Source: Escherichia coli (lineage in GTDB: Bacteria > Pseudomonadota > Gammaproteobacteria > Enterobacterales > Enterobacteriaceae). From it: a stretch of DNA of 64,000 nt. The notes under the pieces are model-generated. The model saw nothing but the letters and a program-made list of their open reading frames with translations, did not search any database and had not been told where the DNA came from. The position numbers and the translations under genes were made by a program. The stretch lies in the NCBI RefSeq assembly GCF_003790525.1, contig NZ_CP033635.1. One strand, given 5' to 3'. Positions 9,500-48,545 of this stretch are shown here, piece by piece; within the stretch, counting starts at the first letter, position 1, and every line of letters begins with the position of its first letter.

Positions 9500-11950
<2,451 letters not shown>

Positions 11951-11961
11951 CTAACTAACTC

Positions 11962-13314
11962 TCATAACCGAGAGAAATCATTGAAAAGTGCAAGCCCCAT
12001 TAACAGCACCAGCAGAATCGAGCCAATGCGATAACAAAAGTCTTGAACCCGCTCGGATACCGGTCCGCCCTTGATCTTTTCGATCGCAAGGAACAGCAGA
12101 TGCCCCCCGTCAAGTACGGGCAACGGAAACAGGTTAATTATCCCTAAGTTCACGCTAATAAGCGCAAGAAACGGCAGGTAATAAACAACCCCGAGTTCCG
12201 CTGTCATCCCAGCCCCCTTGGCGATAGAGATCGGCCCACTGAGGTTGTTCAGTTTCACATCACCGGTGATCAATTTTCCCAGCATACTGACCGTCAGCTT
12301 CATCAGCTGCCACGTTTTGTCCGTGGCTTCGACAATGGCGTTGAACGGCCCATACTGGCGTACAACTTTATACTCATCTGGCAAAGGAATGACTTTCGGC
12401 TCAATACCGACAAAACCAATCGCTTTACCATTACCCGGTTTACTCTCCGGGATTAATGTCAAAGACAAAGGACTCCCCTGCCTTTCGATTTCTAACGCTA
12501 AGGATTTACCCGGGTTATCCCGGACAAGCATCACAAAGGTCACCCACTGCGTTAAGGGCTGACCATCGACTTTAACGATCCTGTCGCCTGCTTGCAAACC
12601 TGCCTTGCTTGCCGCCGAGTTTGGCTGCACATTTTCCAGTACAGGTTCAATTTGCGGCCCACGAGGACGAATCCCCAGCGAAGTTACCGGATCTTCTTTA
12701 TCAGGCTCAAACGCCCAGTGACGTAAATCGAGCTTTACATCCCGCCGTTGGTCGCTGCCAAATGGCGCTACCGTAATGGTGGTGCTTTCATCGCCAATTT
12801 TATCGACCAACTGCAAACGCACGGCATCCCAATCAGGCGTTTCGATACCATCTACGGCTTTTAGTTCCGTACCTGGTGCAATTTGTGCTTCCGCAGCTAT
12901 CGAATTGGCTGCTATTTCACCAACCACCGGACGTACGCCAGGCACACCAATAATAAAAACCAGCCAGTAGGCAAAGATAGCAAAAATGAAGTTTGCAACC
13001 GGACCTGCGGCAATAATCGCCGCTCGTTGGCCGACAGATTTATTATTGAAGGCATGGTGGCGGAGTTCCGGAACGACCGGTTCTGCGCGCTCATCCAGCA
13101 TTTTGACATAACCGCCCAACGGGATCAGGGCGATAACATATTCGGTGCCGAGCTTATCAGTTCGCCGCCAGAGCGCCTTACCAAACCCTATTGAGAAACG
13201 CTCAACGCGAACACCACAACGCCGGGCAACCCAGAAATGACCAAATTCATGCACGGTGATAAGTACACCCAGTGCAACGATGAACGAAGCCAAATCCCAG
13301 AGAAAACTCAGCAT
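11962..13314 (-). CDS. rseP: Regulator of sigma-E protease RseP (site-2 protease)
   Basis: ORF track gives 465 aa; known 450-aa RseP begins at internal Met ([28 protein letters not shown]...), HExxH motif present; start trimmed to 13314. Confidence 0.92.
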
Positions 13315-13325
13315 ATTACCTTCCG

Positions 13326-14183
13326 TTAAAGCGTCCTGAATACCAGTAACAACAAGCAAGCAAAGACCGGTACCGCAGCCGTCAGGCTATCAATACGATC
13401 TAAAATACCACCGTGTCCTGGAATTAAATGACCGCTGTCCTTAATTCCTGCTTCACGCTTAAACATACTTTCGGTCAGATCGCCGAGCACTGAGGCTAAC
13501 GCTGCGACAATAGAGCAAATGAGTAAGGTGACGGGAGCGACGTCGAGATTCACCCACATGCCATAACCCCATGAGATTACCGCTGCGGTCGCGAGTCCAC
13601 CGATAAAGCCTTGCCAGGTTTTACCCGGAGAAACCTTCGGTGCCAGTTTATGTTTACCAAACAATTTGCCAAACATATATGCGCCAGAGTCAGCGCCCCA
13701 TACCAGGATCATGACATAGAGCAGCCATATTGCGCCACTGTAATGATTCTCGTCGTAGTGCCAGGCCCGTAACGCCAGCATGCCCCAGAAGAAGGGAACA
13801 ATGGTTAGCACGCCAAAAATAATGCGCAATGTTTTAGAGTTACGCCAGATTGCTGCGGAACCTGGGTAAAACAGCACCAGCAATAGCGCGACAATCCACC
13901 AACCCAGCGAAGCCCAAAGTGAGATTTCAACCAGCGGTTGATGAATATTTCGGTGATATTCCGGCAACAGAAAAAGCATCAGCGCCAACAATAACCCGCA
14001 TAACACCGCCAACCATACTCGCTGCGAACGAGTGGTAAAACCGCTAAGCTGTCCCCATTCCCACGCTGCCAGCATACAGACCACCAGCGTTACAATGGCG
14101 AACCCCACCGGCGGCAACAGAAACAACGCCGCGATGACGACGGGTATTAACACAAAAGCAGATATCAGGCGATACTTCAGCAA
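13326..14183 (-). CDS. cdsA: CDP-diglyceride synthase
   Basis: 285-aa polytopic membrane protein recognised as CdsA. Confidence 0.93.
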
Positions 14184-14195
14184 AAGCGACCCCCA

Positions 14196-14957
14196 TCAGG
14201 CTGTTTCATCACCGGGCTCGGTGCCGCCGAAACGACGCTCTCGATTAGCAAAGGCATTTAACGCCCCTTCAAAGTCTTGTTCATCGAAATCGGGCCAGAG
14301 AACATCTGTAAAGTAAAGTTCGGCATAGGCAATTTGCCAAAGCAAAAAGTTACTAATGCGATGCTCCCCCCCAGTCCTAATTACTAAATCTACAGGGGCC
14401 AGTTCATGCATACAGACATGCTGGTTTAGCATCTCTTCATCTATCTGATCTGGTTGCAGGTTTCCTTGCTGCACCTTTTCAGCCAGTTGCCTGACTCCCT
14501 GGACTATATCCCAACGTCCACCGTAGTTCGCCGCAATATTCAGCGTCAGACCGGTATTCCCGGCTGTTAGCGCTTCAGATTTACGAATACGTTCTTGCAA
14601 ACGCGAGTTAAAGCGACTGGTATCGCCAATAATACGCAGACGCACGTTATGTCGGTGCAGACTCTTTACTTCGCTATCAAGCGCCCACACAAACAGTTCC
14701 ATTAACGCACTGACTTCCTGCGCTGGTCGGTTCCAGTTTTCACTACTAAAGGCATACAGAGTTAACGCCTCAATACCGTTGTTGGCCGCAAAAGAGACAG
14801 CCCGGCGGACGGATTTTGCCCCGGCTTTATGCCCAAAGGCACGAATCTTCCCTTGCTTTTTTGCCCAGCGACCATTGCCGTCCATAATGATCGCAACATG
14901 ACGACAGCCATGCGCTGGCAATTTTTCGCTAAGTGGTTGAGTAGCAGACAACATCAC
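14196..14957 (-). CDS. uppS: Undecaprenyl pyrophosphate synthase
   Basis: 253-aa ORF, ...HVAIIMDGNGRWAKKQG..., cis-prenyltransferase signature. Confidence 0.93.
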   Translation of the reverse strand: MMLSATQPLSEKLPAHGCRHVAIIMDGNGRWAKKQGKIRAFGHKAGAKSVRRAVSFAANNGIEALTLYAFSSENWNRPAQEVSALMELFVWALDSEVKSLHRHNVRLRIIGDTSRFNSRLQERIRKSEALTAGNTGLTLNIAANYGGRWDIVQGVRQLAEKVQQGNLQPDQIDEEMLNQHVCMHELAPVDLVIRTGGEHRISNFLLWQIAYAELYFTDVLWPDFDEQDFEGALNAFANRERRFGGTEPGDETA

Positions 14958-15010
14958 GCGTTTCTTATTCCCTGACAGGGTTTACGGTACTCAGGAATAC
15001 TGAAGCCTAT

Positions 15011-15038
15011 ACAAAAAAAAGCCGTGTAAAACCACGGC
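15011..15038 (-). terminator. Intrinsic terminator between dxr and uppS
   Basis: Plus strand reads AAAAAAAA-GCCGTG-TAAAAC-CACGGC; on the minus strand this is a GC stem followed by U8. Confidence 0.6.
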
Positions 15039-15142
15039 ATACCTGACCTTATAAAGCCAACTACTTACGATCAGATGGCGCAGACTATATCACTGAAGCC
15101 CTACGCTAACAAATAGCGCGACTCTCTGTAGCCGGATTATCC

Positions 15143-48516: not shown

Positions 48517-48545
48517 GGCGGGAAATGCTCCCGCCTTATTTTTTG
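48517..48545 (+). terminator. Intrinsic terminator downstream of dksA, immediately upstream of gluQ
   Basis: GGCGGGA-AATGC-TCCCGCC followed by TTATTTTTTG, 29 nt after the dksA stop and 10 nt before the gluQ ATG. Confidence 0.65.

Follow-up and report, generated by a model that had tools for sequence, protein, structure and literature searches.

A Rho-independent terminator between dxr and uppS of Escherichia coli marks the 3' end of the small RNA IspZ within the uppS leader

The hairpin and U8 tract between dxr and uppS in this Escherichia coli window (the whole 64-kb stretch of DNA that was analysed) are best explained as a Rho-independent terminator that makes the small RNA IspZ out of the uppS leader, that also ends the transcripts of frr and dxr, and that, by a low level of readthrough, supplies the uppS-cdsA-rseP mRNA; we put the probability of this reading at roughly 93%, and no observation runs counter to the identification. 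The element is already known as the 3' end of IspZ, because it is annotated within the dxr-ispU spacer of the K-12 MG1655 record (ncRNA ispZ, b4809, 'small regulatory RNA IspZ') and was characterised experimentally in 2021. An earlier note on this DNA is accurate on the sequence of the element and missed both the promoter upstream of it and the sRNA. A hairpin that stands between co-oriented genes should not automatically be assigned to the gene that precedes it; in this spacer a promoter lies 38 nt upstream, and the hairpin becomes the 3' end of a functional sRNA within the leader of an essential gene.

The genes dxr and uppS are co-oriented, both on the minus strand, and uppS is followed by cdsA, rseP and bamA, a gene order on which our calls and those of the earlier note agree. 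The two coding sequences are separated by a spacer of 185 nt (15142..14958). A 501-nt query laid over the junction found matches in 5424 of 5426 complete E. coli genomes, with an identity of at least 99% in 5324, and the hairpin is single-copy per genome in complete E. coli genomes. Relative to K-12 the spacer aligns without gaps and carries two differences in the 201 nt compared, at window positions 15042 and 14964. The window shares with K-12 IspZ (b4809) the locus, promoter, stem-loop 1, OxyS seed and 6-bp hairpin with U8, the only difference within ispZ being G for A at IspZ nt 35 (15042), which converts a U-A pair of stem-loop 1 to U-G and keeps the pairing; the published experiments used the K-12 allele. 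At the other difference, 14964, the window has G where K-12 has A; this base precedes the uppS GTG by 7 nt and falls within the putative ribosome-binding region. The coordinates of the features are collected in Table 1.

Table 1. Features of the dxr-uppS junction, in window coordinates
Feature	Position	Strand	Details
dxr, 1-deoxy-D-xylulose-5-phosphate reductoisomerase CDS	16339..15143	minus	ORF; NCBIfam NF003938 E = 3e-231; K-12 b0173
Sigma-70 promoter shared by IspZ and uppS	15112..15084	minus	-35 TTGTTA 15112..15107; 17-nt spacer; extended -10 TGaTATAGT 15092..15084
IspZ sRNA, 81-nt form (published)	would start near 15097	minus	
IspZ sRNA, 60/61-nt form	15076..15016	minus	K-12 ncRNA ispZ b4809, 194784..194844
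IspZ stem-loop 1	15076..15041	minus	nt 1-8 (15076..15069) pair with nt 29-36 (15048..15041); MFE fold
OxyS-pairing seed GUUGGCUUUA	15061..15052	minus	IspZ nt 16-25; apical part of stem-loop 1
Terminator hairpin GCCGUG-GUUUUA-CACGGC	15038..15021	minus (coding)	IspZ nt 39-56
U8 tract	15020..15013	minus	directly 3' of the stem; followed by GT at 15012..15011
Distal uppS 5' UTR	14958..15012	minus	in readthrough transcripts only; has block GGCTTCAGTATTCCTGAGTACCGT...CAGGGA
uppS/ispU CDS, GTG start	14957..14196	minus	ORF; NCBIfam NF007596 E = 2e-167; K-12 b0174

Inspection of the sequence resolves a stem of six perfect pairs, five of them G-C, closed by a 6-nt loop (GTTTTA). RNA folding returns this hairpin as both the MFE and the centroid structure, with a dG of -11.7 kcal/mol and a z of -2.7 against dinucleotide shuffles, and within the 64-nt IspZ context each pair of the stem has a probability of 0.997-1.0. 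The two attributes of an intrinsic terminator, a G+C-rich stem-loop and an immediate U-tract, are thus both present on the transcribed strand; on the plus strand the hairpin is followed by ATACCTGA, which has no T-run, so that the element is not bidirectional. The GC stem and eight U residues that had been placed on the coding strand at 15011-15038 match these data exactly in sequence and in coordinates. A strict census of both strands of the window, in which a perfect 6-bp stem with at least five G-C pairs, a loop of 3-8 nt and at least seven T in the eight positions immediately after were demanded, found three sites, as against 0.04 +/- 0.24 in 100 dinucleotide-preserving shuffles, and the dxr-uppS hairpin was the sole strict-census site in the window with 8/8 T. 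Other strong terminator-grade hairpins lie at 17996..17981 (minus), between tsf and pyrH, and at 48517..48535 (plus), at 48.5 kb; another strong hairpin, at 18945..18923 (minus) between rpsB and tsf, coincides with the published Term-seq 3' end at K-12 190800.

Published experiments in K-12 demonstrate the activity of the terminator in vivo. Adams et al. 2021 (eLife 10:e62438, PMC7815308) reported a dominant Term-seq 3' end at K-12 194843, 60 nt upstream of ispU, with 73,361 reads (LB, OD 0.4; supplementary files 1 and 3). Mapped onto the window, this end falls at 15017, the fourth U of the tract, and so at the location near 15.0 kb where the earlier note had proposed looking for a Term-seq signal. 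For this 3' end the intrinsic-terminator score is 14.1 and the Rho score, after bicyclomycin, 0.69, and in a rhoR66S mutant the IspZ terminator was unchanged in lacZ fusions and by northern blot (PMC7815308). The authors describe 'very little readthrough' and an IspZ that is abundant under all conditions tested in K-12; on northern blots, the RNA appears as abundant, stable species of 60 and 81 nt (PMC7815308). Term-seq, northern blots and rho-mutant data together (PMC7815308) bear out the proposal of a strong intrinsic terminator, active in vivo and Rho-independent, and confirm that the hairpin is a real strong terminator and no chance feature.

Binding of IspZ by Hfq was detected by RIL-seq and co-IP (Melamed 2016/2020, as summarised in PMC7815308), and the level of IspZ is slightly Hfq-dependent (PMC7815308). 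A terminator hairpin with a long U tail, as found at the 3' end of IspZ, is usual for Hfq-bound RNAs. A later correction to PMC7815308 touches ChiZ/ChiX only. A cmscan against Rfam 15 over 14000..16500 (E <= 10) brought up no family for IspZ; its four matches were at chance level, and the best one over the region reached 15.4 bits where the gathering score is 111.

The spacer promoter has nine of 12 consensus matches plus the TG in a promoter scan, and it ends 7 nt before a +1 at 15076, in agreement with the annotated ispZ start and with the Cappable-seq TSS at 194783. A primary 5' end at 194783/4 is reported from both Cappable-seq and dRNA-seq (PMC7815308, PMC6131387), and the two IspZ TSSs are taken from the description of Adams et al. 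(PMC7815308) and the table of Yan et al. (PMC6131387); no convincing sigma-70 promoter match was found for the 81-nt form. With this promoter placed after the dxr stop and before the hairpin, the hairpin sits in the uppS 5' UTR and is more than a dxr terminator. The earlier description of the hairpin as the end of dxr is accordingly right in so far as some transcripts do stop past dxr, and falls short in that the hairpin belongs to the uppS 5' UTR and the IspZ 3' end. Promoter mapping upstream of uppS, which had been suggested as a check, indeed yields a TSS (194783), albeit one upstream of the hairpin and not downstream of it.

Full-length reads delineate the transcripts that reach and cross the hairpin. 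In the SMRT-Cappable-seq data of Yan et al. 2018 (PMC6131387), frr-dxr, pyrH-frr-dxr and tsf-pyrH-frr-dxr reads terminate past dxr, frr-dxr-ispU and frr-dxr-ispU-cdsA reads from TSSs 192616 and 192813 cross the hairpin, and ispU-cdsA-rseP reads starting from TSS 194783, the IspZ promoter, represent readthrough. The partial readthrough that had been suggested for uppS-cdsA-rseP-bamA is thereby upheld by both sets of crossing reads. Transcription start sites internal to the cluster were mapped from the same publication onto the window: rseP 196158 at 13702, and bamA 197025 and 197299 at 12835 and 12561, respectively (PMC6131387). The same table also has an ispU-cdsA-rseP TSS at K-12 194839 (PMC6131387), which corresponds to window 15021, in the 3' arm of the stem and 4 nt before the Term-seq 3' end. 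No -10 or -35 element is recognisable for this TSS, and the place where its -10 would be is taken up by the hairpin loop, which is not conserved; either a weak but genuine start or an artefact may lie behind it. On the coding strand, the promoter scan gave nothing promoter-like within the 55 nt from the U-tract to the uppS GTG. The suggestion that the downstream genes have promoters beyond the terminator consequently holds for rseP and bamA, by way of their internal TSSs, and is not supported for uppS. Upstream of the first bamA TSS (12835, minus, inside rseP) lies GGAACT-N16-TCGAAA, which fits the sigma-E promoter consensus; the match supports an independent stress-responsive bamA promoter within rseP. 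PMC1851643, followed as a lead on sigma-E and uppS, was irrelevant.

Upstream of the terminator, the apical part of stem-loop 1 presents a sequence (IspZ nt 16-25) that is a perfect 10-nt complement of OxyS nt 71-80, a complement of at least 10 nt being found in eight of 2000 shuffles. This longest-perfect-complement test was used in place of RNAduplex, by which the long duplex between full-length IspZ and OxyS was no better than shuffles (190/500); the RNAduplex result is uninformative because the program ignores intramolecular structure. OxyS is the predominant RIL-seq partner of IspZ, and overexpression of IspZ leaves OxyS 'slightly lower' in K-12 (PMC7815308). Mutation of either IspZ or OxyS (the M1 alleles) abolishes the lowering of OxyS and the compensatory pair restores it (PMC7815308). 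Stem-loop 1 itself carries a covariation signal: across 14 distinct Escherichia/Citrobacter/Kluyvera sequences, four of its eight pairs differ at both bases and pairing is kept in 98% of cells, values that were reached by 0-1 of 500 shuffles, with slid controls pairing at 26-35%.

Taken together, a working model for the junction emerges. RNA polymerase starts at the spacer sigma-70 promoter with its +1 at 15076, a second, longer form beginning near 15097, and transcribes the 36-nt stem-loop before reaching the hairpin and U8. Most transcripts are released at about 15017, yielding the stable, abundant, Hfq-bound IspZ of 60/81 nt, which through nt 16-25 base-pairs with the oxidative-stress sRNA OxyS and brings down its level; a minority of polymerases pass the hairpin and generate the uppS-cdsA-rseP mRNA. 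For frr/dxr transcripts the first terminator encountered is the IspZ hairpin, which thereby serves dxr as a terminator too. We infer that it also acts as a step-down valve, set between translation-factor genes that are highly expressed and envelope enzymes of low abundance, and that a share of uppS expression is reliant on readthrough. It is uppS that provides the lipid carrier used for peptidoglycan, O-antigen and further polymers of the envelope. Because uppS heads a cluster that runs on into cdsA, rseP and bamA, the passage of polymerase past the hairpin bears on envelope biogenesis.

We queried the conservation of this arrangement by a scan of species-representative genomes anchored on the back-translated UppS peptide motif MDGNGRWAKKQGK, which is independent of the hairpin. 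The scan gave at least 120 loci, mostly from Bacteroidota, with 28 Enterobacterales among the matches listed; the motif MDGNGRWAKKQGK is too general, and no Salmonella, Klebsiella or Enterobacter was among the matches listed. In every listed Enterobacterales locus with upstream DNA, dxr lies directly upstream of uppS, which is not the case in Vibrio and Psychromonas. The promoter (TTTGTT-N-TGnTATAGT) and the hairpin GCCGUG...CACGGC/U followed by 6-9 U were present in 26 of the 27 analysable Enterobacterales spacers among the matches listed; as listed, the 26 comprise Escherichia spp., 13 Citrobacter, 2 Kluyvera, 4 Yersinia and 7 Proteus. The sole exception among the 27, an Erwinia MAG (locus L085), keeps the promoter as TTGTTC...TGGTATAGT and has neither hairpin nor U-tract; there, to judge by the sequence, the spacer promoter appears to drive uppS directly. 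From +1 to the U-tract the RNA is about 60 nt long in Escherichia, Citrobacter and Kluyvera; in Yersinia and Proteus its length is about 100 nt.

In an alignment of the six genera, the promoter hexamers alone are invariant, the hairpin is common to five genera and the remainder drifts. The sequence of the terminator stem is invariant in Escherichia, Citrobacter and Kluyvera, with a loop that varies in sequence and length; Y. rohdei has one compensatory stem pair (C-G to U-A), and Proteus has a G-C to G-U change. Covariation says little on the terminator stem (the observed score was reached by 40 of 500 shuffles) because the stem is nearly sequence-invariant. The block GGCTTCAGTATTCCTGAGTACCGT...CAGGGA near uppS is kept in Escherichia, Citrobacter and Kluyvera. 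The OxyS seed GUUGGCUUUA, by comparison, is intact only in Escherichia among the matches listed; one E. coli representative has GUUGGCUUUU at this position, and some Citrobacter retain only UUGGCUUU. Because the seed is restricted to Escherichia and the promoter-hairpin module is much older, the origin of the hairpin cannot lie in OxyS sponging.

In four Vibrio species (loci L026, L028, L048 and L106), a non-homologous strong hairpin, GCGCUGUGC...GCACAGCGC followed by U7, precedes uppS; its 5' arm is also given as GCGCTGTGC (GCGCTGTGC-loop-GCACAGCGC plus T7). The Vibrio hairpin lies 30-40 nt upstream of uppS, the stretch concerned spanning about 30-60 nt before the gene, and directly past frr, with almost no room for a promoter. 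A strong terminator right before uppS thus recurs in Vibrio as an independent case.

The arrangement could be read more simply as an operon boundary, at which the (frr-)dxr transcript ends and downstream of which uppS-cdsA-rseP-bamA start anew, a reading that we consider very unlikely. In its favor, the sequence scan found no second terminator-grade hairpin between the dxr stop (15143) and 15038, the full-length frr-dxr, pyrH-frr-dxr and tsf-pyrH-frr-dxr reads stop past dxr, and starts are reported at 194839 (window 15021) and within the cluster for rseP and bamA. However, the conserved promoter lies upstream of the hairpin and the abundant product is a 60-nt RNA begun there, the 55 nt from the U-tract to the uppS start are devoid of a promoter-like site, and TSS 194839 falls in the stem with no -10 match and a would-be -10 region that is not conserved. 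Adams et al. likewise class the 3' end as 'orphan', in the ispU 5' UTR, and not as the primary dxr 3' end (PMC7815308). An operon boundary is compatible with the data as a partial role, in that the hairpin stops upstream transcripts, and fails as the whole story.

It is also improbable, if less so, that the hairpin belongs to a regulated leader in the manner of an attenuator or riboswitch, in which a ligand, a protein, an sRNA or translation tunes readthrough and IspZ is a by-product. The placement of a terminator in the 5' UTR of an essential gene, a promoter-leader-hairpin layout that is kept from Escherichia to Proteus when the OxyS seed is not, the non-homologous strong hairpin before uppS in Vibrio, and the remark of Adams et al. 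that whether sRNA or full-length mRNA is made 'could be regulated' (PMC7815308) are all in keeping with such control. Against it, we found no antiterminator: in prefix folds the 5' arm is single-stranded until the 3' arm has been made, and a fold with the 3' arm blocked gives no new helix, with the terminator helix at a probability of about 1. The leader also has no Rfam match even at E <= 10 and no conserved leader peptide, its only AUG frame (15040..14954) losing the AUG in Citrobacter and Kluyvera, and IspZ is abundant, with little readthrough, in each condition tested (PMC7815308). A trans-acting factor might nonetheless tune readthrough. That the hairpin is a chance structure, or a REP/ERIC-type repeat, with no role in transcription can be set aside almost entirely. 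Weak terminator-like matches are common, as a loose definition returned 25 matches in the window versus 16.5 expected, but the stringent definition gave its three sites against 0.04 expected, and an in vivo 3' end falls in the U-tract (PMC7815308). A repeat element is further contradicted by conservation of the hairpin in five genera, by its single copy per genome and by RepRanger, which has no REP or RIT for ispZ (PMC12306157).

With a terminator that makes IspZ as the preferred reading, the junction can be placed among known systems by what it shares with them. Rho-independent terminators can act as partial terminators in gene clusters, with the downstream genes expressed at a lower level. 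Such terminators resemble the IspZ hairpin in their G+C-rich stem and U-tract, in 3' ends that fall within the U-tract and in allowing some readthrough; unlike them, the IspZ hairpin has a promoter 38 nt upstream, and its terminated product is a trans-acting RNA. A close parallel is ChiZ, from the chiP leader, the second sponge sRNA of 5'-UTR origin in the study that described IspZ, which is similarly short, stable and Hfq-bound, is derived from a 5' UTR via a premature 3' end and acts on an sRNA, ChiX (PMC7815308). ChiZ, however, has a Rho-dependent 3' end that allows substantial readthrough, and it needs Hfq for its level, whereas IspZ has an intrinsic 3' end that allows very little readthrough and a level almost independent of Hfq (PMC7815308). 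Riboswitch- and attenuator-derived sRNAs (DebRoy 2014, Mellin 2014 and Melior 2019, as cited in PMC7815308) are also terminated leaders that act in trans; those leaders have an antiterminator under the control of a ligand or protein, whereas for IspZ no alternative fold, Rfam match or leader peptide was found.

The comparative result, that is, a module kept across Enterobacterales, a seed that is not and no antiterminator, is not reported in the literature examined, and it leaves the classification of the element unchanged. We tentatively suggest, at odds that we hold to be rather low, that the module of promoter, short structured RNA and hairpin before uppS is ancient, with a conserved job either as a fixed or conditionally leaky cis valve or as an sRNA family with lineage-specific targets, and that OxyS sponging is a recent Escherichia exaptation. 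If this reading were true, the recurrence in Vibrio would suggest that cells generally have to restrain undecaprenyl-phosphate synthase expression by terminator readthrough. A module far older than the OxyS seed, together with an unrelated terminator in Vibrio, offers a new angle that amounts to a modest hypothesis and not to a discovery.

Several minor features of the spacer were also observed. A 28-codon frame, MPWFYTAFFCIGFSIPEYRKPCQGIRNA*, runs from 15040 to 14954 on the minus strand; its AUG overlaps the 5' arm of the hairpin, the frame crosses the U-tract, and its TGA stop overlaps the GTG start of uppS (GTGA). It is the sole AUG-initiated frame in the leader and is probably spurious because Citrobacter has AAG and Kluyvera GAG in place of the AUG. 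In three Citrobacter species (L057 at about 1700-1900, L086 at about 10000-10130, and L117), an insertion of 125-200 nt lies between the terminator and the uppS-proximal block, extending the spacer to 310-384 nt versus 185. The core of this insertion, CCCAGGAGCATACAnnnAGTATGTGACTGGGG, resembles the ERIC/IRU repeat; a pattern search found the core in L057 and L086 only, and the ERIC-like insert is separate from the hairpin, which it adjoins. Lastly, the 9-mer GGCTTCAGT occurs twice on the minus strand of the spacer, at 15100..15092, just 5' of the -10, and at 15007..14999, just past the terminator, where it opens the block GGCTTCAGTATTCCTGAGTACCGT. Both copies are conserved in Citrobacter, and a 9-mer repeat within 185 nt is marginally unexpected (about 0.07 by a rough calculation).
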